The position numbers and the translations under genes are program-made. A stretch of 64,000 bases of DNA from contig MGUA01000020.1 of the NCBI GenBank assembly GCA_001799735.1, forward strand, positions 7,572 to 71,571, given 5' to 3'. The notes below the pieces were generated by a model. It did not search any database, had not been told where the DNA came from, and saw nothing but the letters and a program-made list of their open reading frames with translations. Below, in pieces: positions 3,013 through 23,911 of this stretch (within the stretch, counting starts at the first letter, position 1; each line of letters opens with the position of its first letter). The DNA is from Elusimicrobia bacterium GWB2_63_22 (GTDB lineage: Bacteria; Elusimicrobiota; Elusimicrobia; Elusimicrobiales; UBA9959).

Positions 3013-3040
3013 CGTTATTTCAGTTTCCGGTCATCGCTGC

Positions 3041-6676: not shown

Positions 6677-6696
6677 GCCCCGCGCAAAAATATTTC

Positions 6697-7917
6697 ATGT
6701 CCACGGTAAAAATAAACCAGCTCCTTCTCCGCAGGCTGTCGCCCGGCTCCGGCAACGGCCCGGAGGGGCTCTACGAGCAGGCCGTCACCCGGGGCCACGG
6801 CGGCGACATCCCCGGCATGCGCGCGCTGTTCGCGCGCTTCGCGGTCTCGGCGGGGCGGGACGCAGACCCGGAAAAACTGTTCCGGGCCCTGATGGAACTG
6901 CGCCTGTACGCCAGGGCTTTCGCCGCCGGAGAAAAGCTAGTGCGGCTCAGGGGCTCGGACCGGCTGCCTCTAAAAGACCCTTTCATCGACATTCGCTTCG
7001 CCCCCCCGCCGGGCTATTACGAAGAGCATATCCGTTCCCTGCGCCGGTTCAGGGCAGGCGCTGGGAGCGAGGCGTGGAAGAATTACTATCTGGGAGCGCT
7101 GCACCGCCGGCTTAACCGGCTGGAGGAGGCGCTGGTCTTTTTCAACAAGGCCCGGCCGGCCGGACCTGCCTATGGCTGGATGCGCTTCCAGCGCGGCTGG
7201 ACGCTGCTCAACCTGGGCGGGGATCTGCGGGAGGCGGAGGCCGACCTGCGCGCCGCCGTCCGCGCCGACGGGGCGGACTGGGTGGCGCGCTGCCTGCTCG
7301 GGGAAACCCGCATCTGCGCCGGCCGGAGAGCCGGGGGGCTTAAAGATTTTTCCGCGGCCCTGAAGGCCGCGCCGGCGCACTCGGCCGACATCGCCGCGTG
7401 GCGCGGCCAGATGCGCCTCCTGTACGGCGACTACCGCGGGGCGCTCGGGGACCTCAGGGCGGCCAATAAAAAAAAGAGCGTTTTTTCCTACTGCTGGCTG
7501 GGGGCCGCCTGGCTCTGCCTCGGGAAAACCGGCAAAGCCCTCTCCCTCCTGCGCCAGGCGGTGCGGCTGCTGCCGCGGGACGCCGAAGCCCGGCTCTGGT
7601 ACTGCGAGGCCCTGCGGAGGCTTGGCCGCCGGGGAGCGGCGCTGCGCCAGCTCTCCTTCGCCGGCGACGGCAACTGGACCAGGGCCAACAAGACGCTCCT
7701 GCACGCCCAGGCCGGGCGCTATTCCGAAGCTTTCGGCTGGTACCTGAAACTGGACGGGGAAATAAGGCTGAGGCTGGAAAAAGAAACCGGCCTGAGGCCG
7801 GTGGACGCGCCCGCCCTGGCGGGGCTGATGGAAGCCCTCTTTAAAAAAGCCCTCGGCAACCGCACAGACAAGCGCTACCTCTACACCCGGTGGCTGACGC
7901 CGCCGCCCCGCGCCTGA
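6697..7917 (+). CDS. TPR-repeat protein
   Basis: ORF-track entry 6583..7917, trimmed to the first ATG after the upstream stop (MSTVKINQ..., 38 codons in). Repeated Ala/Leu/Arg-rich helical pairs with TPR-like spacing, e.g. WYCEALRRLGRRGAALRQL and AWLCLGKTGKALSLLRQAVRLLPRDAEA. Confidence 0.6.
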   Translation: MSTVKINQLLLRRLSPGSGNGPEGLYEQAVTRGHGGDIPGMRALFARFAVSAGRDADPEKLFRALMELRLYARAFAAGEKLVRLRGSDRLPLKDPFIDIRFAPPPGYYEEHIRSLRRFRAGAGSEAWKNYYLGALHRRLNRLEEALVFFNKARPAGPAYGWMRFQRGWTLLNLGGDLREAEADLRAAVRADGADWVARCLLGETRICAGRRAGGLKDFSAALKAAPAHSADIAAWRGQMRLLYGDYRGALGDLRAANKKKSVFSYCWLGAAWLCLGKTGKALSLLRQAVRLLPRDAEARLWYCEALRRLGRRGAALRQLSFAGDGNWTRANKTLLHAQAGRYSEAFGWYLKLDGEIRLRLEKETGLRPVDAPALAGLMEALFKKALGNRTDKRYLYTRWLTPPPRA

Positions 7918-7960
7918 ACCGCGGGTAGAACTTCCTCAGCCGCGGTTTTTTCGCTAGAAT

Positions 7961-9088
7961 GTGGGCATGGGGTTCCGGGGGCTACTGCGCACGCTGCTGC
8001 TTTCTTTGCCTATGCTGGCATTGAGCGCCTACCTGCTTACAAGGGGCGTTATTCCTCCGGATTGGCCGCACCGGGCCGCGCTCCTCCTGGTTTTCTTTTT
8101 TTTCAACGCCGCTTTCATAGCGATGATACATACCGGCAAGACGGACCGCTGGCGGGCCCCGCTTTTTATCGCTATCGCCGGCCTGTTCGCCGTCTCCTTC
8201 ATGGGCAACATGCTGGAACTCAACTCCCGGCAGGGCGAATTTGTGGATTTCATCTTCCGGGATAGCGTGCCCATGTGCCCGGTCGTGATCCCGATGATGC
8301 TGATCCCGGCCGCCGTCGGCAAGACCATTATCTGGCCCGGGGCCGTCGCCGGCACCTACGCCGCCGCGGGGCTCATGTTCGTCATCTGGCTGGCCGCTTC
8401 GCTGGGCCTGGGCAAGGCCTGGTGCGGCTGGGGCTGCTTCTTCGGCGGCCTCGACGACGCTTTCTCGCGCCTGCTGCCCAGGGCGCTCCTCGGCACGCCG
8501 GGCTGGCTCAGGGCGCTGCCCTATGCCGTACTCATAGTGTTCGCGCTGCTGACCGCCGCCTCCATGATGCCGGCCTATTGCGGGCTTCTCTGCCCGGTCA
8601 AGGCCGCGACGGAACTGCCGCCGGGAGACTTTGTCAGCGACAAGCTCATGCTCTGGGTGCACCTGGGCATGTTCGGAGCTTTTACCGCGGCGCTGCCGAT
8701 ACTTACCAAGCGCCGCGTCCAATGCGCCTTCATCTGCCCGCTGGGCGCGCTGCAGAACGGCATGGACCGCCTGGCCCCATTCAAGATGCGCGTGGACGCC
8801 GCCCGCTGCACCGCCTGCGGCGCCTGCGCAAAAAACTGTCCGGTCCTGGCGATAAAGCCGGGAACCGCAACCCCGGGCAGCGCCTGCGTCAAGTGCGGGC
8901 GCTGCGCCGATAATTGCCCGGCCGGGGCCATCAGTTTCTCCGTCAAAGGCGCCGTCCACTCCCCCGGTTCAGGGCGGCTGCTCTTTCTTTATCCGGCTTT
9001 TCTTTTTATGACGGGTTTCGGCGGCGGCATCTGCGTCGACGCCGTAGCCAGGCTCATTACCTTCGGCCTGACCGGGAGGCTGTTCTGA
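7961..9088 (+). CDS. Polytopic membrane polyferredoxin (NapH/NosR-like 4Fe-4S binding protein)
   Basis: 375 aa with multiple hydrophobic helices, a CGWGCFFGG motif, CPVKA and CPLGA, plus two classical ferredoxin motifs (CTACGACAKNCP and CVKCGRCADNCP). The start is either GTG 7961 or ATG 7967. Confidence 0.75.
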   Translation: MGMGFRGLLRTLLLSLPMLALSAYLLTRGVIPPDWPHRAALLLVFFFFNAAFIAMIHTGKTDRWRAPLFIAIAGLFAVSFMGNMLELNSRQGEFVDFIFRDSVPMCPVVIPMMLIPAAVGKTIIWPGAVAGTYAAAGLMFVIWLAASLGLGKAWCGWGCFFGGLDDAFSRLLPRALLGTPGWLRALPYAVLIVFALLTAASMMPAYCGLLCPVKAATELPPGDFVSDKLMLWVHLGMFGAFTAALPILTKRRVQCAFICPLGALQNGMDRLAPFKMRVDAARCTACGACAKNCPVLAIKPGTATPGSACVKCGRCADNCPAGAISFSVKGAVHSPGSGRLLFLYPAFLFMTGFGGGICVDAVARLITFGLTGRLF

Positions 9089-9540
9089 AACGCGTAAGGA
9101 ACGCTCCCTCCCTGCTCTGGGCGGCGCTGGCCACCCCGGCGGTATTCCTGTCCCTCGCCGGCAGCGACGCCTTCAGCCGCACCCTCGCGGAGAAATCCGG
9201 GCTGAAGATCTCTCCCCGGTTCACCGGCGGGGAAATAGTCGCCGAGACCAGGCACGGCGGGTACAAGACGCTGCTGCACCGGCCGGTCTTCGACGGCATC
9301 GCCGGCGAGCGGGAGACAGGCTTCATCCAGGTGGACTGGCGGCCGCTGCCGGCCCTGCCCCCGGAGCTGAGCGAGGAGATCCCGCTGCCCGGAGGAGGCA
9401 GTTTCCGGCTGAACGTGGAGACGGCCACCGGGCGGGTCTCCTGCGAAGGCGGCGGCGGCCGGGTACTCTGCGACCCCGGCACGGCGCGCGCGAAGAACGC
9501 CCTCACCGTGCGGGTCAAGCTTTACCGGCGCCGCGGCTGA
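9085..9540 (+). CDS. Hypothetical exported protein; start codon unresolved
   Basis: In frame with ORF-track entry 8914..9540, whose first ~57 codons overlap the polyferredoxin gene in another frame. A signal-like LLWAALATPAVFLSLAG begins just after the upstream stop. GGGAGG (~9074..9079) precedes a CTG at 9085, and I saw no in-frame ATG or GTG in the first ~55 codons after it. Confidence 0.3.
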   Translation: MKRVRNAPSLLWAALATPAVFLSLAGSDAFSRTLAEKSGLKISPRFTGGEIVAETRHGGYKTLLHRPVFDGIAGERETGFIQVDWRPLPALPPELSEEIPLPGGGSFRLNVETATGRVSCEGGGGRVLCDPGTARAKNALTVRVKLYRRRG

Positions 9541-9551
9541 ACCCCGCCGGC

Positions 9552-11219
9552 TCAGCGCCCCAGCGCGGGAATTATTTTATCGTTGGAGATCCTGAACAGG
9601 CCGCCGGCCCCGGCGGCGTAGAGATATTTTTTGGTCGCCGACAAGCCCTCGATGCGGGGCGTCACGTAGAAAGACCCCAGCCTTTTAGAAGAAGAGACCT
9701 CGTAGACCACCACGTCGCCGCCGAGATAGGACCCCGCGTAAAGAAATTTTCCGTCGGCGGAGAACTCCAGCTTCCTCACATGGAAGGGCGCGTCGATCTT
9801 GCCGATGATCTTCAGACTCTCCGCATCCAGCATGTAGATATCCTGCGTGAAGACCGAAGGGGCGTAGAGCCTGCGGCCGTCAGGCGACAGCGCCAGGTCC
9901 ATGAAGGCCCTGGAGGGATCGGAAGCGCCGGTCAGCTGCAGGGTATTTTCGTCGAACTCCAGGATGCGCCGGCCCGGCTGCGCGCCGATCCAGTGCATGA
10001 ACCACATCAGCCGCCAGAAACCCGGCCTGGCCGCGGGGTCCTGGCCGTAGAGCGAGACCAGGAGCGTGCGCCGGCGCGGGTTGCGCTTGACCTGGAAGAC
10101 CACGGCGCCGTTGCCGATCAGGCCGGCCTCGTGCAGCGACAGCGATTTGAGCAGCTTGCCCGAGCCGTCCAGGGCGAACAGCGCCGGGTTCAGGTTATTG
10201 ACCGCGTACACCCTGCCGCAGGCGTTATGCACGGCGAAGAGTTCCTCCACCGGCCACCCGCCGACCGAGGCCGGCAGCGGCAAGCGCTTGAGCGAATCGG
10301 CGCCGGGCACGTATTCCAGCAGGTACGGCGCGTGCCAGGGCGCGAAGTAAAGCCGCCCGGGGCATTCCGAAGAGAACCGCCGCACCTGGGACCCCTCGTA
10401 AAAAGCCCTGAACTCCGGGCGGAGCAGGTCTACCCAGGCGAAGCTCGGCCTGGGCGCCGCGTCGCGCCCGAAGGTGGCCCCAAAGGAGAGCGCGGCCCAG
10501 GAATCGTCGGGCGCCGCGTAGACCTCGTGGGGGTGCAGCGTCCCCGCGGGCCAGGGCTCGCCTTCGGCCCCGGCGTAACCCTCGGCCGGGAAAACCTTCT
10601 CCAGGCCCGCCGGCCGGGAGCGCAGCTCGCGCAGGGGCCCGCCGGGGTGGAAGTAAAGCAGGGCGAACAGCGCCGCGGCGCAGGCGGCGGGCAGCAGCAG
10701 CGTTACGGTAAGGCGGAAGGCGGAACGGCGATAGACGAGGGCCCAGTAGGCCGCGCCTATCAGGGCCAGCAGCGCCGCGGCCGGCAGCGGGTTGGCGTAC
10801 AGCAGGATCCAGCCCACAAAATGCCAGAGCCCCACCAGCGGCGCGAAGATGTCGGGGCGGCCGTGGGCGGTTATGGGGAAAAGGAAGAAGAGCACCGAGA
10901 GCAGGAGCAGCACCAGCATCCTGCCCGCCATTGGCAGCCAGACCAGGGGCCCGGGGCCCAGGCGTTTCGCCTCCAGCAGCCTGGTCGCCGCGTATTCTAA
11001 AACCAGCAGCGGCAAGGCGGCCGCGGCCGCGGTCCAAGCCGGCAGCGGCAGCAGGTACAGGAGATAACTGTGCGCGGAACGTATATAATATAACTGAGCG
11101 AAAGTTGCCGCGGCCGGGGCCAGCAGGTAAAAAACGGCCGCCCGGGACCCCGCCGGGAGCGGGGCTTTCTCTAAAATTTTAAAAAAATACTTTTTGATGT
11201 CAGAACTCGCCATTATCAT
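9552..11219 (-). CDS. Polytopic membrane protein with C-terminal beta-propeller (YVTN/YncE-like repeats)
   Basis: 555 aa. The N-terminal ~200 aa are very hydrophobic (several TM helices). The C-terminal part has repeated ...DG..LY....... blades (DGRRLYAPS, DGKFLYAGSY, KKYLYAAGAG). The first ~20 codons are AT-rich and overlap the divergent GT2 start, so the true start is uncertain. Confidence 0.6.
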   Translation of the reverse strand: MIMASSDIKKYFFKILEKAPLPAGSRAAVFYLLAPAAATFAQLYYIRSAHSYLLYLLPLPAWTAAAAALPLLVLEYAATRLLEAKRLGPGPLVWLPMAGRMLVLLLLSVLFFLFPITAHGRPDIFAPLVGLWHFVGWILLYANPLPAAALLALIGAAYWALVYRRSAFRLTVTLLLPAACAAALFALLYFHPGGPLRELRSRPAGLEKVFPAEGYAGAEGEPWPAGTLHPHEVYAAPDDSWAALSFGATFGRDAAPRPSFAWVDLLRPEFRAFYEGSQVRRFSSECPGRLYFAPWHAPYLLEYVPGADSLKRLPLPASVGGWPVEELFAVHNACGRVYAVNNLNPALFALDGSGKLLKSLSLHEAGLIGNGAVVFQVKRNPRRRTLLVSLYGQDPAARPGFWRLMWFMHWIGAQPGRRILEFDENTLQLTGASDPSRAFMDLALSPDGRRLYAPSVFTQDIYMLDAESLKIIGKIDAPFHVRKLEFSADGKFLYAGSYLGGDVVVYEVSSSKRLGSFYVTPRIEGLSATKKYLYAAGAGGLFRISNDKIIPALGR

Positions 11220-11928
11220 CCCCGCCTACAACTCGGCAAAAAGCGTAGAGCCTACCCTGGAACGCCTGGCCGCCGTGCTGCCGCGCCTGCCGCGCGCGGC
11301 CGTGCTGCTGGTGGACGACGGCAGTTCAGACGGCACCGCCGCGGCGGCCGCGGCCGCCGGGCAGAGGCTGGGCCTGGACCTGCGCGTGCTGCCCCACCTG
11401 GCCAACCGCGGCTACGGCGCCGCGCAGAAAACCGGCCTGAAGGCCGCGCTGGAGTCCGGCTGCCGGGCGGCGGTCCTGCTGCATGCCGACGGGCAGTACG
11501 CCCCCGAAGAGCTGCCGGCCATAACGGCGCCTGTTTTCTCCGGCGCCGCGGACGTCTGCGTGGGCTCCCGGCTGCTGTCCGGCCAGGCCAGGCAACAGGG
11601 CATGCCGTTCGCGCGCTACTGGGCCAACCGCGGGCTCACCGCCCTGGAGAACCTGGTGTTCGGCCTGGATTTCGCCGAGTACCACACCGGCTACCTGGCC
11701 TACTCGGCCGGGGCGCTGCGCGCCATCCGGTTCGACACCCTGACCGATAAATTCCATTTCGACGGGGAGATGCTGCTCTGCTCCGGCAAGCTCGGCCTGC
11801 GCGTGGCCCAGGTGCCCGTCTCCGCCTATTACGGCCCCGGCTCTTCCAGCCTGGCCCCCCTGCCTTATCTCGCCGAGATCGCCGGCGTGCTGTTTAAATA
11901 CCTGCGCCGCGGCTATTTCTTTCAGTGA
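11194..11928 (+). CDS. Family 2 glycosyltransferase (Dpm1/polyprenol-phosphate sugar synthase-like)
   Basis: 244 aa with LAIIIPAYNS, VDDGSSDGT, NRGYGAA and HADGQY. This is the typical GT2 (GT-A fold) N-terminal motif set. Confidence 0.8.
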   Translation: MMSELAIIIPAYNSAKSVEPTLERLAAVLPRLPRAAVLLVDDGSSDGTAAAAAAAGQRLGLDLRVLPHLANRGYGAAQKTGLKAALESGCRAAVLLHADGQYAPEELPAITAPVFSGAADVCVGSRLLSGQARQQGMPFARYWANRGLTALENLVFGLDFAEYHTGYLAYSAGALRAIRFDTLTDKFHFDGEMLLCSGKLGLRVAQVPVSAYYGPGSSSLAPLPYLAEIAGVLFKYLRRGYFFQ

Positions 11929-13391
11929 GCCGTCGCGCGAAAAAAATTCTTCAGCAGGCCGTAGCCCCAGCGCTCGGGCAGCGGCTTTAAAAAACCCGTC
12001 CTGAGCCTGAACCAGGCCAGCGGCCTGTACAGATAGTACAGCGCCCTGAGCGCGGCCGAACCGGCGCCATAGTCGTCCATCTTGCGGTCGAGGAACTTGC
12101 TGACAAAGCAGGCGCGCTCCAGGAAATCCTTCATCGAGGGGTCCCCCTCGTGCATGTGCGAATAGTCCCACTCGTAGCGGCCCCAGTCCTCCAGCCTGCC
12201 CGGAAAAGCGACGCCCTTCCTCTCCAGCCCGGCGTAGATCTCGGTGCCCGGGTAGGGCGCGAAGATATAGAACTGAGGGATGCGGAAATTGTCGCCCAGT
12301 TTAAGGATCTCCATCCCGAAGCGCATGGTCTCGCGGATCTCCGTCAAAGTCTCTCCGGGCAGCCCGACGATAAAGGAGCAGAGCACCGCTATGCTGCGGC
12401 CCTTGAACCGCGCCACCTGCGCGCGCGCGAGCTCCAGGCTGCCGGACTTGTTGAGGATCTCGCGGCGCACGCGGTCTACCCCGGACTCCACGCCGATGGC
12501 CAGCCGCACCACGCCGGCCTCCTCCAGAAAGTCCAGGTCCGCGTCGCTCAGCCTGGCCAGCGTCTCTATGTCCACGCCCTGCAGCACGCAGCCCAGGCCC
12601 AGCGCCTTCAGGCCTTTCAGGATCGTCATCGCGCGGCCCTGGTCTATGAAAAAATTATCGTCGAGCAGGTAGACCAGGGAGAAATCGTACTTCTCCCGGA
12701 GCTCTTTTATTTCCCTGAGAACCAGGTCCGCGTGTTTGGCGCGCAGGCGGCCTCGGCTGAAGGCGCGGTTGTAGCAGTAGGCGCAGCGGCAGGGGCAGCC
12801 GCGGCTGGACTGGTAGAAGAACATGCGCCGCCCGTTATAGGTCTGGGCGTAGCGCTCCATGTCCACCAGGTGGTAGGGCACGGGCGGCAGGGCGTTGACG
12901 TCGAGGAGTTCCTGGGGGGCGGGGGCCGAGGGCCGGCCGTCGCGTTTGAACCACACCCCGGGGATGCCGGCAGTGTCGGCGCCGGAGGCCAGGCGGCGGG
13001 CGAGTTCCGCCAGCGCGTTCTCCCCTTCGCCTTCTACCACGTAATCGGCGAGCTCGTGGGCCGCCGCCTGCTCCGGCAGCAGCGAAGCGTGTATGCCGCC
13101 CCAGACCAGCGGCGCGGCGGTAAGCCGGCGCGCCTCGCGGGCGGCCTCGAGGGCGCGGGTGATCATCTGGCCGGTCATGGCCGTAAAACAGACCGCCGCC
13201 GTATCGGCGTCTATCGCCGCGGCCAGCGCCGCCCGCCAGTCACCCGGGAGGCGCTGGTCGACCACTCTCACTTCAAACTCGCGGCAGGCCACGGACGCGG
13301 CGGCTAGCAGCCCCAGCGGCGGCGTGGGCTTGTCGCGGAACATGTCCATATCGCCGATGCCCGGCTGGACCAGGACCAGGTTCTTTTTCAT
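11922..13391 (-). CDS. B12-binding domain radical SAM protein (class B type)
   Basis: 489 aa. N-terminal Rossmann-like cobalamin-binding region (KNLVLVQP...PPLGLL...), then SSRGCPCRCAYC. ATGA overlap with the upstream gene (13388..13391). Confidence 0.85.
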   Translation of the reverse strand: MKKNLVLVQPGIGDMDMFRDKPTPPLGLLAAASVACREFEVRVVDQRLPGDWRAALAAAIDADTAAVCFTAMTGQMITRALEAAREARRLTAAPLVWGGIHASLLPEQAAAHELADYVVEGEGENALAELARRLASGADTAGIPGVWFKRDGRPSAPAPQELLDVNALPPVPYHLVDMERYAQTYNGRRMFFYQSSRGCPCRCAYCYNRAFSRGRLRAKHADLVLREIKELREKYDFSLVYLLDDNFFIDQGRAMTILKGLKALGLGCVLQGVDIETLARLSDADLDFLEEAGVVRLAIGVESGVDRVRREILNKSGSLELARAQVARFKGRSIAVLCSFIVGLPGETLTEIRETMRFGMEILKLGDNFRIPQFYIFAPYPGTEIYAGLERKGVAFPGRLEDWGRYEWDYSHMHEGDPSMKDFLERACFVSKFLDRKMDDYGAGSAALRALYYLYRPLAWFRLRTGFLKPLPERWGYGLLKNFFRATAH

Positions 13392-14332
13392 ACCGGGCCG
13401 CCGGCGGGCACAATAAGGTCCGCCAGGACCAGCGCACCGGAGAGCTCCGCGCCGGCCGCCACCCGCCCGCCGGGGAAGACTACGGAATCTTTGATCCTGG
13501 CGCCGGCCCCGACAAAGGCGCCGCGCGCCGCTACTGAATTTTCAAGTTCCGCCCCCGGGCCAACCTCGGCGCCGGGGTGCGCGAACCCCCGCAGGCCGCG
13601 CTCAGCCAGCCAGGCGGCGTTGGCCTTCACGATATCCGCGGGATAGGTGATGTTTACGTCCAGCGAGAGCGTCTCCATGGCGGTGACCAGGCCGCCGGCC
13701 GAGATGAGGTTCTGTATCGCGTCGGTCAGTTCTATCTCGCCGCGCAGGGAGGAGGGGCGCGTGTACGCGAGGGCCGGCAGGAAGAGCGGGCCGAAAAAGT
13801 AGACGCCGCAGGGTTTGACCAGGCTGAGCGCCCGGGCCGGCTTCTCTATGATCTTAAGCACGCGCCCCGTCTCGTCCTGGGCTATAGTGCACTCCTTCAG
13901 GATGGCCGCTTCGTCCTCGACGCTGCGCACGGAGAGCACGGCGTCCGAACGCCCCTCGGCCACGGTCTTTACGGCGCCGGAAAAACGCGGCGCCGAATAG
14001 TAGGTGTCGCCCAGCACCAGCGCGAAGGGCCCCCCGGCCAGCCACGGCGCGGCCAGGGAGGCGGCGTGGCCGATGCCGAGGCGCTCGGCCTGCGGCGCGA
14101 TAAAAAGTTCGGAGCCGGTGCCGGCCAGCGCGGCGCGCGCGGCGGCCTCTATGGAGCTGCCGGCGGGGTCCGTGACTATGACGAACCGGCGGCTGCCGGC
14201 GGCCAGGAAGGCTTTAAGGTGCATCTCCAGCAGCGTGGAGTCGCCGACCGGCAGCAGGGCCTTCGGGAAGCGCCTGCCTACCTCGCCCAGGCGCTTGCCG
14301 CTGCCGGCGGTAAGTATGACGACGGGGATCAT
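13388..14332 (-). CDS. Sugar-1-phosphate nucleotidyltransferase with C-terminal left-handed beta-helix
   Basis: ORF-track entry 13388..14626, trimmed to Met99 (MIPVVILTAGSGKRLG, the canonical G-x-G-x-R-L NTP-transferase signature). That ATG forms an ATGA overlap with the upstream stop (14329..14332). The C-terminus has hexapeptide-like repeats. Confidence 0.8.
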   Translation of the reverse strand: MIPVVILTAGSGKRLGEVGRRFPKALLPVGDSTLLEMHLKAFLAAGSRRFVIVTDPAGSSIEAAARAALAGTGSELFIAPQAERLGIGHAASLAAPWLAGGPFALVLGDTYYSAPRFSGAVKTVAEGRSDAVLSVRSVEDEAAILKECTIAQDETGRVLKIIEKPARALSLVKPCGVYFFGPLFLPALAYTRPSSLRGEIELTDAIQNLISAGGLVTAMETLSLDVNITYPADIVKANAAWLAERGLRGFAHPGAEVGPGAELENSVAARGAFVGAGARIKDSVVFPGGRVAAGAELSGALVLADLIVPAGGPV

Positions 14333-15669
14333 TTCAGGATCTTTCCGGCGGCGGCCAGGCCGGCCTCGATGCTGTGGTCCATGTTGTAGACGGCCCATTC
14401 GCCGAAGCGCCCGGCTGAAATTATCCCGGCCCGGGCCAGGGAGCGCAGGCAGGCGCCCGTGTCCTCGGCGTGGCGCGCGTGCGGCACCGGGTAGGCGGGG
14501 CAATGGTCGTAGGCCCAGACGCCCCTGATATCTTTCTTCTTTATTATTCCCAGCCGCAGCAGGGCCGCGGTGACGCGGGCCTGCAGGCCGGCCGGCGCGG
14601 CGGCGCTGCCGCCCGGCAGCGCGCACTCCACGATCAGGGCCTTGCCGCCGGGCACGGCGCGAGGGTTAAAAAGGTCGGCGCGGGTCAGGCGGTAGAACGG
14701 CAGCGCCGGGTCCGGCACGTAGATCCAGTGGTAGGGCGGCAGGTTCACGGCGGAGAGGGCGTAATGCAGGCACAGCACCCGCGTGGCGCGCAGGCGCGGC
14801 GCTGCCTGGCGGCAGTCCCTCAGGCCGGCCAGCGCGACGGCTTTATCCAGCGGCAGGGTGGAGATGAGCCGGCCGTAGCGCACGGGGCCGCGGGAGGTCA
14901 GCACGGTCTTGCGCCGGGCGTCTATGCCCGTCACCGCGGTGCCGCAGAGCGGCGAGACCGGAGCTATTTCGCCCAGCAGGCCCTCTATCACGCCCTCTAT
15001 GCCGCCGGTCTTCGGGTAAATAAACTCCGCGTGCGGCGCCACGTCGCCGCGGGAGGACGGCTTGCCGCCGAGGATGCTCTCGGCCAGGCCGGCCGGGCCG
15101 GGCAGGCGGATCTTGGAGGCGAGCCAGGCGTAACTCATGCCGGCCAGCGGGGTCTGCCACAGTTTCTCGTTGTAAGGCCGGAAAAAAAGGTCCGTTATCC
15201 CGGCGCCCAGTTCGCGCAGGGCGTACTCTTCCAGGTTGCGGGGGCCGGGGGCGGGGCCGCCGGACCGGTTCTCCAGCAGGCTCACCAGCACCCGGCGCCT
15301 GTCTTCGGGCGAAAGCTGGTGAATGTTGTCCTGAAAAGGAAAATCCACCCAGCCGCCCTTCCACATTACCCCCAGCCGGTGGCGGTGCGAGTAGACCGGG
15401 CCGGCGAGCGCCCTGAAGACGCCGGCGGCGCGCCGGTTCCTGGTAAAAAAAACGTGCGGCAGCTCGTCTATCGTCACCCCGCCGGAGCGGTTGGTCTTCA
15501 TGAGGCCGCCCGGCCTGGCGTCCCGCTCGAGCAGCAGTATATCCCGCCGGCCGGCCCGCAGCAGTTCGCGGGCGGCGACCAGGCCGGTAAGGCCGGCGCC
15601 AAGGATCACCACCCCGGCCTTTGCGGGCAGGGAGGCGGGGCGGGCGGCGGCTGCTTTCTTCTTCATCAT
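14329..15669 (-). CDS. FAD/NAD(P)-binding oxidoreductase (amine-oxidase / protoporphyrinogen-oxidase / UDP-galactopyranose-mutase-like fold)
   Basis: 446 aa. N-terminal dinucleotide-binding motif VVILGAGLTGLVAAREL...LLLERDARPGG. The C-terminus has the GRFGEW motif seen in this fold. Confidence 0.7.
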   Translation of the reverse strand: MMKKKAAAARPASLPAKAGVVILGAGLTGLVAARELLRAGRRDILLLERDARPGGLMKTNRSGGVTIDELPHVFFTRNRRAAGVFRALAGPVYSHRHRLGVMWKGGWVDFPFQDNIHQLSPEDRRRVLVSLLENRSGGPAPGPRNLEEYALRELGAGITDLFFRPYNEKLWQTPLAGMSYAWLASKIRLPGPAGLAESILGGKPSSRGDVAPHAEFIYPKTGGIEGVIEGLLGEIAPVSPLCGTAVTGIDARRKTVLTSRGPVRYGRLISTLPLDKAVALAGLRDCRQAAPRLRATRVLCLHYALSAVNLPPYHWIYVPDPALPFYRLTRADLFNPRAVPGGKALIVECALPGGSAAAPAGLQARVTAALLRLGIIKKKDIRGVWAYDHCPAYPVPHARHAEDTGACLRSLARAGIISAGRFGEWAVYNMDHSIEAGLAAAGKILK

Positions 15670-15692
15670 TTAAATATTATCAAATCTGGCGT

Positions 15693-17789
15693 TCAGGCCC
15701 TCTCGGCGCAGAAGACGCTCCATTTGCCGAGCGGCACCGTCCTGGTCAGGCGCCAGCCGGCCGACCGCAGGTCGTTCTCCAGGGTTTCCCGCGCGCACTC
15801 CATCCAACTCCCGGTCAGTTCCCAGCCGGGGCCGAATTCAGGATAGCCCAGGCCGCTGTCGATAATGAATAATTTAGCGCCAAAACCGGCCGAGCCCAGC
15901 AGGCGCCTGAGCAGGCCGACCCGCCCGGCCGCCGGCAGGGCGCCGAGCACCTGCGAAACCACGATATCCCGGAAATGGCCGCCTTTAAGGGCACCGGCCG
16001 CGGCCGCCGGCAGGGCGGGCCTGTCCGCGTAAAACCTGTCCCGGGCCGGCGGGGTCGGGAAAAAGCCGAATTTTTCTTCTACCAGCAGTTCCCGCGAAAA
16101 GTCGCAGCCGGAAAGCCGGGCCGGGTCGGAGGAGGCCGCCCCGCAGACGAGCAGCGAGGGGGAACGCAGCCGTTCGCCTGCTGCCAGGCGCAGCACCCTG
16201 TCGGCCGTGGCGCCGTCCACCCTCTCCCAGGCCAGGCGCGCCTCGCAGAACCCCGCGTAGCGCGCCGCGAAGGCCCGCCTCTCGCGGCCTCGCTCCAGCC
16301 CGGCCAACTCCCCTATCAGCCAGGCCCGGCGTTCCCTGAAAGTGTTCACGTCCAGCCCCGACCAGTCCCCGTCGTCCTGGAACGCGTCCGTCTCGGCCGC
16401 GGCCGCCGCCATGCCTTTGTCCGCCCGGGCCAGCCTGTTCACCCGGCGGCAGAGCGCCACCCCGGGAAACTCGCCGGCGTGGCCCCGCGCGATATGGCGG
16501 AACAGGAAGCCGAAATACTTATCCGCGAAGACGATGTTGGCGGCCAGCGACACTTCCCGGGCCAGCGCGCAGGCGCGCTTCAGCCCGGCCGCGCCGAGCG
16601 ACGGCACGCTGAGAACGTAATAGGGGTCCAGCTCCTGGAACTTAATGCCCAGCCGCGCGGCCGCCTTGCCCAGCGGCGTGCCCGGGTAGACGCGCAGGCG
16701 GTGGAAGAAGAGCCCGGCGTTGACCGAAAGGCCCCAGTCGAAGTTGGCCAGGCAGTTCTTATAGGTGTCGCCCGGCAGGCCTATGATGAAGCTGAGCACC
16801 ACCTTGGCCCGCGGGGCCGCGGCCGCGAGCAGGCCGGTCTTGCGCCGGAGCTCGCCGAAATCCATCCGCCTGTTGATCAGCCGGCAGGTCTCGGGGAAGA
16901 CGCTCTGCACGCCCACGCCGAGAATGAAGGCCCTGTCGTTGAGGAGCGGGATCCTCCGCTCGTCCAGGTTGCGGAGGTCCATCTGTATCTCCACGTTGAT
17001 CCCGCGCCGGGACACCTCCCCGCCCAGCAGCCGCAGCAGCTGCGGCATGGCGGAGTTCTGGCAGAGGTCGGGGTCTATAAGAAAAAGCGTGCGCAGCTCG
17101 GGAAAATCGCTCAGGATGCGGGCCAGTTCGGCCCTGGCCCGCCGGATGCCGAATTCACGGTAATTCCTGGTGATGGCGCAGTAGAGGCAGGACCCGCGGC
17201 AGCCGCGCGAGTTCTCGAAAGGGATGCGCGGGTAGCCCGCCCACTTGAAGAGGCCGCCCAGGTAGGGCGAGGGCACGGTTGAAAGGTCTTTGACGGACTC
17301 GCCGGGTGGATTGACGGCGACGCGCCCGCCTTCGGCGTAGGAAAGGCCCCTGACCCCGGCCAGGTCTCCCCGGCCCAGCAGCGCCCTGAGAACCGCCACG
17401 AAGGCCAGCTCCCCCTCCCCGGCTACGGCGTAGTCCACAGCGCCTCCGGAGAAGATCTCGCCGGCCGGCACCGAACCGGCCAGCGGGCCGCCGAAGATTA
17501 TTTTAGCGCCGCAAAGTTTTTTTACGCCCTGCGCCGCCTTCTTGGTCAGCGCCAGCCCGCCGTAGACAGTAAAGCCGGCCAGGTCCGGCTTCAGCGCCGC
17601 CACGCGCGCCGGAGCCTCCTCCGCGCCTACCCAGGGCTCCAGGATGGTTATCTCCACGCGCCCGCGCAGGAAAGGATCGCGCAGGGCGCAGGCCTTCAGC
17701 AGGCCCGCGGCCAGCGGCAGCAGCCCGTCCGCGTGCAGCGGCGGCACCAGCACCACCCTGTACTTGTCCCGGCGGGCGGCGGCCTTCAC
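15693..17789 (-). CDS. B12-binding radical SAM protein fused to a C-terminal methyltransferase-like domain
   Basis: 698 aa. N-terminal B12-binding-like region, then NSRGCRGSCLYC. The C-terminal ~180 aa (FRDIVVSQVLGALP...KLFIIDSG...) resemble the C-terminal half of a class I SAM methyltransferase fold; that assignment is weak. GTG start, with a GTGA overlap with the upstream stop. Confidence 0.75.
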   Translation of the reverse strand: MKAAARRDKYRVVLVPPLHADGLLPLAAGLLKACALRDPFLRGRVEITILEPWVGAEEAPARVAALKPDLAGFTVYGGLALTKKAAQGVKKLCGAKIIFGGPLAGSVPAGEIFSGGAVDYAVAGEGELAFVAVLRALLGRGDLAGVRGLSYAEGGRVAVNPPGESVKDLSTVPSPYLGGLFKWAGYPRIPFENSRGCRGSCLYCAITRNYREFGIRRARAELARILSDFPELRTLFLIDPDLCQNSAMPQLLRLLGGEVSRRGINVEIQMDLRNLDERRIPLLNDRAFILGVGVQSVFPETCRLINRRMDFGELRRKTGLLAAAAPRAKVVLSFIIGLPGDTYKNCLANFDWGLSVNAGLFFHRLRVYPGTPLGKAAARLGIKFQELDPYYVLSVPSLGAAGLKRACALAREVSLAANIVFADKYFGFLFRHIARGHAGEFPGVALCRRVNRLARADKGMAAAAAETDAFQDDGDWSGLDVNTFRERRAWLIGELAGLERGRERRAFAARYAGFCEARLAWERVDGATADRVLRLAAGERLRSPSLLVCGAASSDPARLSGCDFSRELLVEEKFGFFPTPPARDRFYADRPALPAAAAGALKGGHFRDIVVSQVLGALPAAGRVGLLRRLLGSAGFGAKLFIIDSGLGYPEFGPGWELTGSWMECARETLENDLRSAGWRLTRTVPLGKWSVFCAERA

Positions 17790-18874
17790 CTGGCCGCCCC
17801 GGCGCGCGGCACGTCCGGGTTTCCGGAGCCCATCCCCGTAGCGCGCAGCAGCCGGACGATATCCGTGCTGCTCTTGAGCATGGCTTTAAGGTCGCCGCCG
17901 TGCAGCAGGCTGCTGTAATAGATGCAGAGCAGGCAGCCCAGGAACTCGCGGCGCCCTCCGGCCATGACCGCCTTGAAAATTTTTTCCCTGGACGCCCTGA
18001 CCTTAGCGAGGTCCGGGCCGGTGCGCCAGTCGCCCGCGGCGTAGCGGGCGCGCAGCGCGGGCTCCTGGGCTACGCTGGAAGCCGAGAGCATGGAGCAGGG
18101 GTAGAAATACCCGTCGGGCCCGATGGAGATCTCGCCCTGGCCGCAGAAACTCTCCAGCCAGGGCTTGCCCGCCCGCATGAGCTTGTAGCCGAACCGCGGG
18201 CTGTCCTTGAAAGCCCCGCGGCCAGCGCCCTTAAGCCAGCGGCTGGCGGCGAGCAGCTCGCACTCCAGGCCGGCCAGGTCGGCGCGCGTCCAGCGCTCCT
18301 GCACCGCGAAAGAGAGCCCCAGGTCGCCGGCGCAGAGCGAAGCCAGGAATTTAATATTTTCAAAAAGGCGGGGCGCGGTGGCGCGCGTCACGGTGGCGGA
18401 GATGCCGAGGCTGCGGCGCAGGCTTTTCGGGATGGCCAGCAGGTTGCGCACTACCCGGGCGGAGCTCGGCGCGCCGCCGGCATCGACGCGGTTAAGGTCC
18501 TGGCTGGCGGGCGCCCCGTCCAGGCTTATCTTCAGGTGCACGCCGCTGCGGCGGAACAGCTCCGCCGTGGGGCGGTCCAGCAGCAGGCCGTTGGAAAAAC
18601 ATTCTATCTCCAGGTCCGGCCCGGCCGCGCGCCGCAGCCAGGGCAGCAGCGAGCGCAGCAGTTTTTTATCCAGCAGCGGTTCGCCGCCGGAGATGCTGAT
18701 CTTCTCGGCCCGCGGGCCGGCGGCCCGCAGATACTGCAGCACGGCCAGTTTCATCCTGCGCAGGTCCAGCCGCTGCGCGCGCGAGCGGTCGAGACTGCCG
18801 GAATAGCAGTAGCGGCAGCGCATATTGCACTGGTTGGAAACGCAGATGTCTAGTTCCTGGGGGATGGTGTTCAT
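17786..18874 (-). CDS. Radical SAM protein with twitch/SPASM-like region, HxsC-like by position
   Basis: 362 aa with CNMRCRYC, ISGGEPLL, and CGQGEISIGPDGYFYPCS (the typical SPASM/twitch beta-hairpin motif). It lies 95 nt downstream of the His-Xaa-Ser peptide gene. Confidence 0.8.
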   Translation of the reverse strand: MNTIPQELDICVSNQCNMRCRYCYSGSLDRSRAQRLDLRRMKLAVLQYLRAAGPRAEKISISGGEPLLDKKLLRSLLPWLRRAAGPDLEIECFSNGLLLDRPTAELFRRSGVHLKISLDGAPASQDLNRVDAGGAPSSARVVRNLLAIPKSLRRSLGISATVTRATAPRLFENIKFLASLCAGDLGLSFAVQERWTRADLAGLECELLAASRWLKGAGRGAFKDSPRFGYKLMRAGKPWLESFCGQGEISIGPDGYFYPCSMLSASSVAQEPALRARYAAGDWRTGPDLAKVRASREKIFKAVMAGGRREFLGCLLCIYYSSLLHGGDLKAMLKSSTDIVRLLRATGMGSGNPDVPRAGAAR

Positions 18875-18969
18875 CGGAAACCCGCCGGGGGGCGGGGCTG
18901 CGGGGGAGACGCGGACGGAAGCCGCCCGCGCCCGCGGATGCGGGACGCGGGAGCGCCGTTAAAGCCCTG

Positions 18970-19302
18970 CTAGCACCAGCCGCCGCGGGCGTGCGAACCG
19001 TGGCTGCCGTGCGAACCGTGGCTGCCGTGCGAACCATGGCTGCCGTGCGAGGCGTGCGAACCGTGGCTGCCGTGCGAGCCGTGGCTGCCGTGGCTCTGGT
19101 GGCTGACGTGCGAGGTCGGGTCGGCCGGCGGGTAGAAGTAGTTCTGGTGGATGGTCTGCGCGCTCGCCTGGTCCACCATCGCCGCGCCGAGTATGCCCAG
19201 CGCGAGGCCGGCCTTCACTATGTCGGCGTCAAGCATCTTCCCCTCTTCGCTGTTGAGGAAGAGCTTTATATTCTTTTTTACTCCGGGTTTTTTCTTTTTC
19301 AT
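18970..19302 (-). CDS. His-Xaa-Ser repeat peptide (HxsA-like precursor candidate), 110 aa
   Basis: ORF-track entry 18970..19317 begins at a TTG. Five codons in there is an ATG (19302) preceded by AAGGAG with a 6-nt spacer. Product: MKKKKPGVKKNIKLFLNSEEGKMLDADIVKAGLALGILGAAMVDQASAQTIHQNYFYPPADPTS, then HVS-HQS-(HGS)4-HAS-(HGS)6, then HARGGWC. Confidence 0.8.
   Translation of the reverse strand: MKKKKPGVKKNIKLFLNSEEGKMLDADIVKAGLALGILGAAMVDQASAQTIHQNYFYPPADPTSHVSHQSHGSHGSHGSHGSHASHGSHGSHGSHGSHGSHGSHARGGWC
18994..19110 (-). repeat. Coding tandem repeat: 13 x 9 nt, organised as ~18-nt units gtgcgaaccgtggctgcc, encoding His-Xaa-Ser
   Basis: Direct reading shows gtgcgaaccgtggctgcc repeated with minor variants from ~18991 to ~19110 on the plus strand. 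On the minus strand it is in frame with the peptide CDS. Confidence 0.85.
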
Positions 19303-19313
19303 GGCCGGCTCCT

Positions 19314-20381
19314 TCAATCCTTACCTAAGGCCTTCCTGGCGTTTTTATTCACGTCTTCTATTATTTTCTGCTCTTCTTTCTTGCGGGCCTCTTCGAGGCG
19401 TTTCTTTTTCTCGGGGCTCATATTCTGTTCGTGCGTCGCCTCCGTCTGGGCGAAAGTGCCGGCGATCTTGTCGAGTATGAGCGAGCAGACCGAACCGGAC
19501 TTGGTGGAGAAAACTCCGCACTCCGTCATGTACTTCTCGGGGCAGGCGGAGATGTTGTTGTCCCGGAGCGAGAGGTAAAGCCTGTTGTTGTCCATGCAGT
19601 CCTGGGTCCTGCAGTTGCGGCTGTCGGCGGGGAACGCCTCGCGGCAGCGGCTCTTGTCGCGGGCGGGCGCCATGTCGCAGATATAGGAGAAGCCTTTGGC
19701 CACCTCGCGGCAGAATTCCGGCGGCACCTTGGCGCCCTCCACGCTGTCCCCCGCGAGATACTTGCGGCAGACCGACTCGCCGTTGACGTTGAACCGGCCG
19801 GCGGCGTAAGCGTAGAAGAGCACGCGGCTGGCGGGGTCCACGCACTGGTAATGCGGGCTCCAGAAATATTTATCCTTCTTGTTGAGGGACCCGGGCAGGA
19901 AGTTGCACATGTTCAGGTCGCCGTAGGCCACGGCGTTGCAGGAGAAGAACTGGGCCAGCAGGCTGTAGAGGGCGTCGTTCTCTTCCTTGGTGAAGACGTC
20001 CGGGCCGAAAGTGGCGTTGCCCCAGGCCTTGCCGTGGGAGGAGAGGATGCCGTTGAGGGTTTTGCCGGTGTAGCCTACCGGGGCGCGGGCGAAGTCCGCG
20101 TTGATGGTGGGCAGCGGGCCGGCCCCGGCCATTTCGGCCGGCGCCTTGAAAACCGAAGAGGGCGGGGCCTTTATCGGGGCAGAGGGCCGCGTTTCCTGCG
20201 ACGGCTGCTGGGCCGCGTAGGCGGTGGCCTCGGCCGGCAGCGGTATGCCCGCGGGGGCCTCGGCGACGGGCGTAGCCTGGCCCGCCGGCAGGGCGGGAAC
20301 GGGGCTGCGCCGCTGCATGTACTGCAGGAAAAGCACCAGGGCCAGCAGCCCGACAATAGCGATCACCACTGATTTTTTCAT
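19314..20381 (-). CDS. Membrane-anchored or exported Cys-rich protein (12 Cys) with Lys/Glu-rich C-terminal tail
   Basis: ORF-track entry 19314..20489, trimmed to Met37 (MKKSVVIAIVGLLALVLFL, a signal/anchor sequence). That ATG forms an ATGA overlap with the stop of the HxsD-like gene (20378..20381). A Pro/Ala-rich linker is followed by a ~220-aa domain with 12 Cys. No family recognised. Confidence 0.65.
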   Translation of the reverse strand: MKKSVVIAIVGLLALVLFLQYMQRRSPVPALPAGQATPVAEAPAGIPLPAEATAYAAQQPSQETRPSAPIKAPPSSVFKAPAEMAGAGPLPTINADFARAPVGYTGKTLNGILSSHGKAWGNATFGPDVFTKEENDALYSLLAQFFSCNAVAYGDLNMCNFLPGSLNKKDKYFWSPHYQCVDPASRVLFYAYAAGRFNVNGESVCRKYLAGDSVEGAKVPPEFCREVAKGFSYICDMAPARDKSRCREAFPADSRNCRTQDCMDNNRLYLSLRDNNISACPEKYMTECGVFSTKSGSVCSLILDKIAGTFAQTEATHEQNMSPEKKKRLEEARKKEEQKIIEDVNKNARKALGKD

Positions 20382-20695
20382 TTGCTCCCCCGTAAGCGCG
20401 GCTTGTTTTCGCCGCAGGCCGACAGCAGCGCCTTGGTCACTATCATGCCGGCCAGTTTTGAATTCTTTTTGGCAAGGTCGATACGGCACTGCTGGTTGAG
20501 CGCCTCGTTGGCGAACTCGCCGGCCAGCCGGTCCAGCGCCGCGCCCCCGGACAGCCGCGCGACCAGAACGCCTTTGCCGGGCGAGACTTTTACGCCGCAG
20601 CGCCCGGCGAAGACGTAGGCCGCCAGCTCGACGGCCTCTTTAGAATAGACCGCCGAGTCAAAAACCAGTTCTTTAGCGTCAGTCTGCTTTTTCAT
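20378..20695 (-). CDS. HxsD-like small protein (copy 1)
   Basis: 105 aa. Its size, position next to an HxsB-like rSAM gene (ATGA overlap 20692..20695), and the segment LAGEFANEALNQQCRIDL resemble the LLNDYxLRE-type signature that I recall for the HxsD family. Not verified by HMM. Confidence 0.55.
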   Translation of the reverse strand: MKKQTDAKELVFDSAVYSKEAVELAAYVFAGRCGVKVSPGKGVLVARLSGGAALDRLAGEFANEALNQQCRIDLAKKNSKLAGMIVTKALLSACGENKPRLRGSK

Positions 20696-22146: not shown

Positions 22147-22579
22147 ACTTGTCTTCCCAAGTGCTCGTCAGTCCCAGCGGGTCCGCGGCTCCCCCGCGGA
22201 CGTCCTCTTTAATTTCTTTCTCGACCTGCGAAATAAGGTCGGCCAGCTCTTTTTCCTGTTCCGGGGTAAGCCCGGAATCCGGGACCGGGGCCGGGGTAGG
22301 CGAGGAGAGCGCCTTCAGCGTAAGGAACTCCCTGAGCTCCCTGTTCTCGGCCGAAATTTTTTCCCGCAGCTTCTCGTCCTCCAGTTCGGCCAGGAACTTC
22401 CCCTTCAGGGCGGCTCCGGACCCGCCGTCTTTAGGCGAGAGCGACACGGCCACGGCGCCGGCGCCGGCGCGGCTTATAAAAACGAAAGCCTCGCCGCTCA
22501 GGGCGTAAGCCGCGTAGCGCGCGGCGTCGAGGCTGTATTTTTTAAGGTCTACCTTAACGTTTGCGATCCTGTTGTCCAA
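22118..22579 (-). CDS. HxsD-like small protein (copy 2) with acidic/Pro-rich C-terminal extension
   Basis: 153 aa. The N-terminal ~100 aa parallel copy 1 (YSLDAARYAAYALSGEAFVFI vs YSKEAVELAAYVFAGRCGVKV) and contain LAELEDEKLREKI (an xLRE motif). It overlaps the HxsB-like start by 29 nt. Confidence 0.55.
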   Translation of the reverse strand: MDNRIANVKVDLKKYSLDAARYAAYALSGEAFVFISRAGAGAVAVSLSPKDGGSGAALKGKFLAELEDEKLREKISAENRELREFLTLKALSSPTPAPVPDSGLTPEQEKELADLISQVEKEIKEDVRGGAADPLGLTSTWEDKYGAKKPRKK

Positions 22580-22612
22580 AGCCCTGTCCTCCGTAAACTC
22601 GTTCTAAACCCG

Positions 22613-23907: not shown

Positions 23908-23911
23908 CGGC

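Follow-up and report, generated by a model that had tools for sequence, protein, structure and literature searches.

A probable lipid-linked sugar module, hitherto undescribed, beside an enlarged Hxs locus in a groundwater Elusimicrobia bacterium

Introduction

Does a block of sugar and radical S-adenosylmethionine (SAM) genes that closely follows the gene for an HxS-repeat peptide act upon that peptide, or does it make a product of its own? The question is raised by a 64,000-nucleotide stretch of DNA from Elusimicrobia bacterium GWB2_63_22 (assembly GCA_001799735.1, contig MGUA01000020.1, positions 7,572 to 71,571), hereafter the window. In it, an hxsA-type peptide gene and its companions are followed on the same strand by genes for radical SAM (rSAM) enzymes, two of them of the cobalamin (B12) kind, a flavin adenine dinucleotide (FAD) enzyme and a sugar nucleotidyltransferase, with a family 2 glycosyltransferase (GT2) gene converging on the last of these. 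An earlier note on this DNA had regarded the block as tailoring machinery chained to the Hxs genes, which would methylate and glycosylate the HxS peptide, and had offered an independent glycolipid or polysaccharide module as a fallback.

HXS has recently been shown to be a four-gene antiphage defence system, HxsD-HxsB-HxsC-HxsA, 99.7% of known systems being confined to Pseudomonadota (Li et al., Nat Commun 2026, PMC13128918). HxsA-D make up the entire complement in more than 99.8% of canonical systems, the order D-B-C-A is found in more than 99%, and sugar genes play no part. In E. coli, HxsA acts as a periplasmic effector; its N-terminus is processed, and an SHRSS motif within it bears a modification of +8 Da (PMC13128918).

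The reading favoured here, with somewhat better than even confidence, is that the region is a composite, in which, within a single clade, an ancestral module for a lipid-linked modified sugar came to be attached to an enlarged Hxs system. One part (A; 9552-15669) is a five-gene, Elusimicrobia-specific sugar module, for which a pathway may be proposed from family membership. The other (B; 15693-18874) would be a clade-specific pair, a PapB-like rSAM enzyme coupled to a CysS/TokK-like B12-rSAM enzyme with a methyltransferase-fold domain. Both would have been joined to a non-canonical Hxs system, the rSAM genes of which lie on either side.

Distribution in loci with and without Hxs genes

The layout HxsD-HxsB-HxsD-355aa-HxsA-rSAM362-698-mutase-NTP-489-GT2(convergent)-553, in which numbers are protein lengths in amino acids (aa) and NTP is the nucleotidyltransferase, is kept in six Elusimicrobia lineages (the window, or L001, and L007, L009, L010, L091 and L097), among which identity of the 698-aa protein falls to 55-58%. 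An extension on the far side of the block, comprising a HemN-like rSAM gene, two HxsC-like rSAM genes, a 360-aa rSAM gene and a second HxsB-like gene, is likewise kept in the window, L010, L007 and L091, while in L009 and L097 the layout is kept through the 553-aa gene and the far side either differs or leaves the contig.

The five-gene unit UGM-NTP-489-GT2(convergent)-553, in which UGM denotes the UDP-galactopyranose mutase homologue of 446 aa, was also found intact in at least five further lineages (L011, L012, L092, L099 and L100) and in part in L013. At none of these six loci was an HxsA, HxsB or HxsD gene or an HxS-repeat open reading frame (ORF) detected within the 4-10 kb searched upstream of the mutase gene and the 4-10 kb searched past the 553-aa gene. 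In neighbour-joining trees of four module proteins, the Hxs-less L011 grouped within the Hxs clade or as its sister, and L012, L092 and L013 branched outside; accordingly, the module was in existence before it became linked to Hxs. As the module occurs in lineages without HxsA/B/D in the flanks searched, its genes are probably not dedicated decorators of HxsA, and the view of the FAD enzyme, nucleotidyltransferase, 489-aa enzyme and GT2 as a four-gene glycosylating tailoring set could not be upheld.

A different distribution was observed for the 698-aa protein. Its orthologues (53-100% identity) were accompanied by Hxs genes in all six lineages inspected, whereas paralogues of 41-43% identity are solitary, with no repeat peptide nearby at L008 or L098. 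Since the orthologues occur only where HxsA/B/D are present, the rSAM pair is a credible Hxs-linked candidate. Co-occurrence with Hxs homologues, which had been named as a check on the tailoring proposal, was thus seen for the 698-aa orthologues (six of six Hxs loci) and not for the five-gene module, which is found in six lineages with Hxs genes and in at least five without.

The companions of the module in the Hxs-less loci are of interest in their own right. These loci are flanked by at least two other B12-rSAM genes and one or two genes for 516-aa amine-oxidase-type flavoenzymes. They also hold a 345-aa rSAM gene (35-36% identical to the 362-aa gene; seen in L011 and L092 next to the B12-rSAM genes) and an orthologue, at 54-57% identity, of one of the HxsC-like genes of the window. 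In no locus examined were classical polysaccharide genes found with the module, its constant companions being radical SAM enzymes. The fallback of an independent module abutting the Hxs genes was therefore closer to the evidence as regards independent distribution, but not as regards a polysaccharide function. The GT2 gene retained its convergent position in every Elusimicrobia locus examined, and the 553-aa gene was adjacent and divergent to it in all those covering that flank. Outside the phylum, a relative of the 489-aa rSAM gene lies beside a co-directional GT2 gene, amid further B12-rSAM and HxsC-like rSAM genes, in Myxococcales and in delta-proteobacterial and unclassified proteobacterial metagenome-assembled genomes (MAGs).

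OTCase-like, amino-acid-kinase-like and pyridoxal-phosphate (PLP; PALP) enzyme genes and an HxsC-like rSAM gene were observed beside the module at L011 100-7640 and L100 28-5448, and OTCase-like, PALP and HxsC-like genes at L092 13830-19230. This shared neighbourhood could indicate a larger biosynthetic cluster, part of it amino-acid-derived.

The rSAM pair

The 362-aa protein (17786-18874, minus strand) contains Pfam Radical_SAM and Fer4_12 domains, and its best NCBIfam match is PapB (89 bits). It had been labelled HxsC-like. HxsC is, however, absent among the 25 best of its 74 family matches, and its identity to the HxsC-like gene of the window at 4177-5247 is 24% (E = 4e-4), confined to the rSAM core; the assignment as HxsC was rejected. 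The protein is classed from its sequence as a PapB/anSME-like rSAM enzyme and, at 26% identity (E = 1e-16), as a paralogue of the product of the gene at 1930-3012.

The 698-aa protein (15693-17789, minus strand) has a Pfam Radical_SAM match; its B12-binding domain scores 28.5 bits, below the cut-off of 32.1. Among solved structures it was matched by sequence to CysS (3.9e-15) and TokK (1.3e-9), and a CxxxCxxC motif (C197/C201/C204) is invariant throughout its family. The AlphaFold2 model (pLDDT 87.8) returned CysS as the best Foldseek match (4e-21), then TokK, TsrM and OxsB, and after these the class I methyltransferases NNMT, plant O-methyltransferases and MmcR (5e-7 to 6e-6). The fold matches to CysS, TokK and TsrM together with the invariant cysteine triad point to the architecture of a class B cobalamin-dependent rSAM enzyme, and the C-terminal alpha/beta domain (about residues 540-698) is modelled as a class-I-methyltransferase-like Rossmann fold. 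The suggestion of a methyltransferase-like fusion was thus borne out at the level of the predicted fold. In this domain the SAM-binding motif I is degenerate (LLVCGAASSDP), and the isolated C-terminus gave no Pfam match even at E ≤ 5. The family is small, with just 21 clusters, and every cluster with a named taxon is from Elusimicrobia. Of the genes in the block, the rSAM pair is the best candidate for Hxs-linked tailoring, for example C-methylation of HxsA.

The five-gene sugar module

The 446-aa flavoenzyme (14329-15669, minus strand) had been described as an FAD oxidoreductase; the amine-oxidase-type FAD fold was confirmed and the assignment was sharpened to a homologue of UDP-galactopyranose mutase. 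It aligns over residues 19-444 with the Trypanosoma cruzi enzyme (4dsg; E = 6e-42) and with that of Aspergillus fumigatus (6e-38), and it keeps the RPYN, W.Y, FYR, YP.P and N.DHS motifs, including equivalents of the two diphosphate-binding arginines. The histidine loop reads LPH for GGH, so that the histidine is kept and both glycines are lost, the equivalent of Tyr334 is phenylalanine, and the WRYEVGN segment is shortened to WAVYN. The enzyme is predicted to be a nucleoside-diphosphate (NDP)-sugar pyranose/furanose mutase.

The adjoining 314-aa protein (13388-14332, minus strand) was correctly recognised in the earlier note as a nucleotide-sugar transferase. It contains Pfam NTP_transferase and Hexapep_GlmU domains, with a short left-handed beta-helix as its tail. 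Its NCBIfam matches are the archaeal GlmU-like, AglF and long RmlA families and its matches among solved structures RmlA and GalU, by which it is assigned as a putative sugar-1-phosphate nucleotidylyltransferase.

For both large enzymes of the block, the B12-rSAM domain content that had been claimed was confirmed. In the 489-aa protein (11922-13391, minus strand; the last gene of the co-directional string) the Pfam B12-binding domain scores 53 bits (cut-off 32) and Radical_SAM 76 bits, and C199/C203/C206 are invariant. Its best NCBIfam match is HpnJ (E = 1.9e-31), at 109 bits against a cut-off of 577, and its similarity to HpnJ, BchE, Sden_1168 and ApyD is at superfamily level only. The family is broad, with 235 clusters. 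Three paralogues of this enzyme, 58-60% identical to that of the window, were observed on a Joint Genome Institute (JGI) metagenome contig (L090, 5806-8933 and 13591-15090), which also holds a more distant B12-rSAM gene; the surroundings there consist of large tetratricopeptide repeat (TPR) proteins and other rSAM enzymes, with no sugar genes.

The GT2 gene (11194/11197-11928, plus strand; 243-244 aa) encodes a bare GT-A domain, Pfam Glycos_transf_2 covering residues 7-177 of 244, with the motifs VDDGSSD and LHADGQYAPEE (DxD-type), no transmembrane (TM) segment and an amphipathic stretch at the C-terminus. A start at 11275 (217 aa), given by one gene caller, was rejected, as it would cut off the GT-A domain, the beginning of which (IIIPAYN) is retained with the ATG at 11197. 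The top NCBIfam matches are PpgS, AglJ, dolichyl-phosphate-hexose transferase and ArnC, all below their equivalog cut-offs, and the only solved structures matched are ArnC and the dolichol-phosphate-mannose synthase of Pyrococcus. By these matches the protein is of the polyprenyl-phosphate glycosyltransferase type. The idea of a glycocin-type enzyme was not sustained: the best matches are all lipid-phosphate glycosyltransferases and no peptide-recognition domain is present. As a candidate it was rejected on the further grounds that no such family appears among the matches and that the gene is present without an HxS peptide in L011, L012, L092, L099 and L100.

The 553-aa gene (9552-11213, minus strand) is not among the genes listed in the earlier note and is the sixth conserved member of the block treated there. 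The AlphaFold2 model (pLDDT 80.1) has about seven TM helices, after which comes a YncE-like beta-propeller of seven blades. Seven residues of the TM domain are invariant (R45, H48, E73, E81, R98, R163 and R167). The full-length family comprises 25 clusters, all named ones from Elusimicrobia, and a phmmer search of the TM domain against 1.84 billion representatives returned 14 proteins, all of the same architecture. The Foldseek matches listed for the model in the PDB all align to the beta-propeller, with no GT-C or other match to the TM domain among them, a weak negative given a pLDDT of 47-79 in that part. Pfam searches at E ≤ 5 with the TM domain and three further uncharacterised ORFs gave no informative match, and a metagenome scan for further 553-aa loci added four short loci only. 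From its invariant adjacency to the GT2 gene, we infer that the protein is a partner or anchor of the GT2. The GT2 and 553-aa start codons overlap head-to-head by 17 nt (11197-11213) and are 3-30 nt apart in relatives; each promoter must therefore sit inside the other gene.

Read from family membership, the module would act as follows. The nucleotidyltransferase would convert a sugar-1-phosphate to an NDP-sugar, which the UGM-type flavoenzyme would change from pyranose to furanose. The 489-aa B12-rSAM enzyme would act by radical chemistry on the sugar or on its lipid-linked form, C-methylation being the most likely outcome. At the inner membrane face, the soluble GT2 would then attach the sugar to polyprenyl phosphate, and the 553-aa protein may anchor the GT2, hand the lipid-linked sugar to a periplasmic acceptor, or both. 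The most plausible product of the module is a sugar that has been modified and is probably furanosyl, borne on polyprenyl phosphate and destined for the periplasmic face.

The Hxs genes of the window

The hxsA gene (18970-19302, minus strand) encodes a precursor of 110 aa with 13 HxS repeats and matches NCBIfam NF038313 (HxsA4) at 67.1 bits (cut-off 55). No other HxS-repeat ORF was found in the window. The protein has a signal-peptide-like segment that ends ASA|Q and a conserved ARGGWC tail, and is 84-100% identical between lineages. HxsB (20692-22146, minus strand), a radical SAM/SPASM maturase, matches TIGR03978 at 473.3 bits (cut-off 370). Two HxsD candidates (20378-20695 and 22118-22579, both minus strand) score 37-43 bits with TIGR03976, below the cut-off of 50, and precomputed PF27806 (HxsD) matches are recorded for both. 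No HxsC gene adjoins HxsB, the order in the window being D-B-D-355aa-A and then the block. Between HxsD and HxsA lies a gene (19314-20381, minus strand) for a conserved 355-aa exported protein, signal-anchored, Pro/Ala-rich and Cys-rich, without a family match. A conserved 261-aa protein (22613-23398, minus strand), with an N-terminal hydrophobic segment, a C-terminal tail of ...MVCCRII and no family match, travels with the Hxs genes.

A second set of Hxs-type rSAM genes is present on the far side of the block (539-5247, minus strand), consisting of an HxsB-like gene (315 bits, cut-off 370), a PapB-like rSAM gene and two tandem HxsC/HxsC4-like rSAM genes. The latter (3116-5247) score 83-94 bits with TIGR03977 (cut-off 267.9) and 90-105 bits with HxsC4 (cut-off 500). 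Beside this set, at 5321-9088 on the plus strand, genes for a HemN-like rSAM enzyme, a TPR protein and a NapH-like polyferredoxin membrane protein were observed. Over 22 kb, nine radical SAM genes are thus seen with a single HxS peptide.

Gene spacing and transcription signals

The ORF positions and the five junctions that had been claimed were borne out by direct reading of the sequence. The 362-aa gene is translationally coupled to the 698-aa gene by a GTGA stop/start overlap (17786-17789); a gap of 23 nt (15670-15692) separates the 698-aa and 446-aa genes; ATGA overlaps follow at 14329-14332 and 13388-13391; and the convergent stop codons of the 489-aa and GT2 genes overlap by 7 nt (11922-11928). 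All six ORFs have the codon-position GC pattern of genuine genes (third-position GC 0.79-0.88), and the same genes were called by independent gene callers on identical metagenome contigs. The upstream string of HxsD-like, HxsB, HxsD-like, 355-aa and HxsA genes is joined by overlaps or tiny gaps throughout, so that one tightly packed co-directional string, as had been proposed, is observed at the level of gene spacing.

The sole sizeable gap in this string is that of 95 nt between hxsA and the 362-aa gene (18875-18969, minus strand), which holds a GC-rich hairpin at about 18917-18950 without a U tract. In each of the Hxs-carrying lineages examined, a G+C hairpin of 8-11 bp comes immediately after the stop codon of hxsA (L007 3505-3535, L009 8733-8766, L091 4323-4347, L097 5735-5765), with a stem sequence that differs between lineages. 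Against the G+C-rich background, the z-scores reach only modest values (-0.97 to -2.9). Attenuator or stabiliser stem-loops, which the hairpin resembles, often come after the precursor genes of peptide operons; it is compatible with partial read-through, though no proof about transcription. A pattern scan for sigma-70 promoters and intrinsic terminators over 9000-24600 gave no site in the gap or at the borders of the block, and no convincing pattern at any of the other junctions; its two best promoter-like matches, which fall in the GT2/553-aa head-to-head region, are not above chance. Parts (A) and (B) are probably read through from an hxs promoter past an attenuating hairpin after hxsA.

Discussion

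That the whole block tailors HxsA, the B12-rSAM enzymes C-methylating the peptide and the sugar genes supplying a donor for O-glycosylation of the HxS serines, either by the GT2 itself or, from a polyprenyl-phosphate sugar, periplasmically via the 553-aa protein, appears unlikely. It is favoured by the position of the sugar genes between two Hxs-type rSAM sets (HxsB/D/A at 18970-22579 and HxsB-/HxsC-like at 539-5247), by the start/stop overlaps that join the genes and by a layout kept in six lineages. The ASA|Q signal-like segment of HxsA also agrees with it, and as HxsA is periplasmic in E. coli (PMC13128918), a lipid-linked donor could reach the peptide. These points are countered by the presence of the intact five-gene module in at least five lineages without HxsA/B/D or an HxS peptide in the flanks searched, in a form ancestral to the association, and by the nature of the GT2, a 243-aa bare GT-A domain of polyprenyl-phosphate type without a peptide-binding domain. 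Moreover, canonical HXS systems have no protein beyond HxsA-D in more than 99.8% of cases, and the modification reported for HxsA is one of +8 Da, not a glycan (PMC13128918). Glycosylation of HxsA in this clade is conceivable at most, and the independent distribution of the module speaks against a dedicated role. A more elaborate scheme, which we consider quite improbable, would give HxsA two routes of maturation, namely cytoplasmic C-methylation or cross-linking by the B12-rSAM fusion and its PapB-like partner and then, after export, O-glycosylation of the HxS serines with a modified furanose from the polyprenyl-phosphate sugar, the 553-aa 7-TM/beta-propeller protein being a transferase of a kind not known before. 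If this were true, a periplasmic peptide akin to an antiphage effector would result, matured by rSAM enzymes and glycosylated.

The constant company of radical SAM genes also raises the possibility, doubtful in our view, that the module belongs to an rSAM-rich cluster for a specialised lipid or small molecule and not to a polyprenyl-phosphate carrier pathway. The GT2 would then add a sugar to a lipid and the 489-aa enzyme rearrange it (for example to a cyclitol), by analogy to HpnI/HpnJ or calditol synthesis, while neighbouring B12-rSAM and CrtI-like flavoenzymes would methylate or (de)saturate an isoprenoid chain. The HpnJ match of the 489-aa enzyme agrees with this, as do the 489-GT2 pairs in Myxococcales and proteobacterial MAGs and the additional B12-rSAM and amine-oxidase-type flavoenzyme genes at the Hxs-less Elusimicrobia loci. 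Yet that match is far below its cut-off, genes for hopanoid, squalene or tetraether synthases were not found in the window, and the closest characterised relatives of the GT2 all use polyprenyl phosphate. An ordinary envelope polysaccharide or lipopolysaccharide-decoration locus, lying near the Hxs genes by chance, would be highly improbable. Lipid A and O-antigen decoration is a common role of ArnC-type GT2s, and a few kb on, past a barnase/barstar pair and a PhoH/PIN gene, the right-hand flank of the window carries the housekeeping outer-membrane and lipid A genes for BamA, OmpH, LpxD, FabZ, LpxA, LpxI and LpxB and a GT9 heptosyltransferase. These lipid A genes, however, are on the other strand and show no synteny with the module where Hxs genes are missing, and no flippase, polymerase, chain-length or further glycosyltransferase gene accompanies the module in any locus; what does accompany it is radical SAM enzymes.

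Several points weigh against the composite reading that is preferred here. The Hxs-less genomes could have Hxs genes elsewhere, the search having covered flanks of 4-10 kb. At the Hxs-less loci the sugar module is accompanied by homologues of the 362-aa gene (35-36%) and of one HxsC-like gene (54-57%); the border between Hxs and module is therefore blurred, and part (B) might be a component of the module and not of Hxs. Similarity of the 489-aa enzyme to known class B rSAM enzymes is confined to the superfamily level, and the examples of HpnJ, BchE and AprD4 make clear that enzymes of this kind need not methylate; reactions of another sort are performed by OxsB as well. The LPH loop and the lost substrate-binding tyrosine suggest that the substrate or reaction of the 446-aa enzyme may differ from that of known mutases. 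For the 553-aa protein, no relative of known function was detected and its TM domain gave no GT-C match, and we infer co-transcription over the 95-nt and 23-nt gaps from spacing alone.

Against the background of a four-gene defence system nearly confined to Proteobacteria, the window holds a much larger conserved version in uncultivated groundwater Elusimicrobia. The division into two parts tells experimenters what to co-express with HxsA, namely the Hxs-linked rSAM pair as opposed to the older, portable sugar-lipid module. That module, a eukaryote-type galactofuranose mutase homologue with a cobalamin rSAM enzyme, a lipid-phosphate glycosyltransferase and an orphan membrane beta-propeller protein, is an undescribed one, and identification of its product would bring into bacterial envelope biochemistry a lipid-linked sugar not seen before, and perhaps a periplasmic transferase of a new class. 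We regard the locus as a solid lead and not a discovery; current views are not overturned by it.

Genomic setting

Contigs identical in sequence to the window are known from groundwater metagenomes of the Rifle aquifer projects. The G+C content of the genome is about 63%, and close relatives of the window proteins are annotated as Elusimicrobia, Elusimicrobiaceae or Elusimicrobiales. Scans of the whole window for tRNA genes and Rfam families gave zero matches, and the PADLOC defence models returned generic radical SAM similarity to viperins and one candidate family, nothing more. Radical SAM-rich loci near NifH paralogues are known from groundwater Elusimicrobia (bioRxiv 10.1101/765248); a tie to these was dropped, as none of the 40 window ORFs scanned matched a nitrogenase family.

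The barnase-like ribonuclease/barstar pair (23518-24484, minus strand) lies directly upstream of the Hxs cluster and is present in L097 and absent in L009; with the PhoH/PIN gene that follows it, it lends this flank a toxin-antitoxin or defence-island flavour. A stand-alone radical SAM gene was observed far from the cluster (48408-49430, plus strand), with a sulfatase-family membrane protein and a GT9 heptosyltransferase as neighbours.

Comparison with known systems

In common with the HXS system of Pseudomonadota (PMC13128918), the window encodes an HxS-repeat protein that bears an export signal, an HxsB that passes its cut-off and small HxsD-like proteins. It differs in its host, 99.7% of known systems being from Pseudomonadota; in its order, D-B-D-x-A, with HxsC-like genes that lie 13 kb off and score far below cut-off; and in the roughly 15 extra genes, the block studied here included, that are embedded in it. 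The HxsA of E. coli has five repeats and a peptidoglycan-binding domain, whereas in that of the window, with 13 repeats in 110 aa, no such domain was detected.

The 698-aa protein aligns in sequence and predicted fold with the class B methylases of the CysS/TokK/KedN5 family over about 540 residues, and shares with them the CxxxCxxC motif and an N-terminal Rossmann domain of cobalamin type; the extra C-terminal domain of class-I-methyltransferase fold, with its degenerate motif I (CGAASSD), is lacking in CysS and TokK. The flavoenzyme shares with the eukaryote-type UGMs (T. cruzi 4dsg, A. fumigatus 3ute) full-length homology, the FAD Rossmann fold and the substrate and flavin motifs, but is shorter (446 as against 480-510 aa), is encoded by a bacterium, has no Pfam GLF match, and carries the LPH loop and the Tyr-to-Phe exchange. 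With the glycocin S/O-glycosyltransferases of the SunS and GccA type, the GT2 has the GT2 (GT-A fold) superfamily as common ground; unlike them, it has only 243 aa, lacks a peptide-binding C-terminal domain and is found without a precursor peptide in several lineages.

The module may also be likened to the polyprenyl-phosphate sugar pathways (ArnC/ArnT, GtrA/B/C, Ppm1/PMT, dolichol-phosphate-mannose synthase). As in these, a small GT2 is found, the closest characterised relatives of which use an NDP-sugar as donor and polyprenyl or dolichyl phosphate as acceptor, and its gene stands beside that for a polytopic membrane protein with a large periplasmic domain. In contrast to them, the GT2 here has no membrane segment, the TM domain of its membrane partner is not GT-C-like but forms an orphan family, and a UGM-type mutase and a B12-rSAM enzyme are integral to the module.

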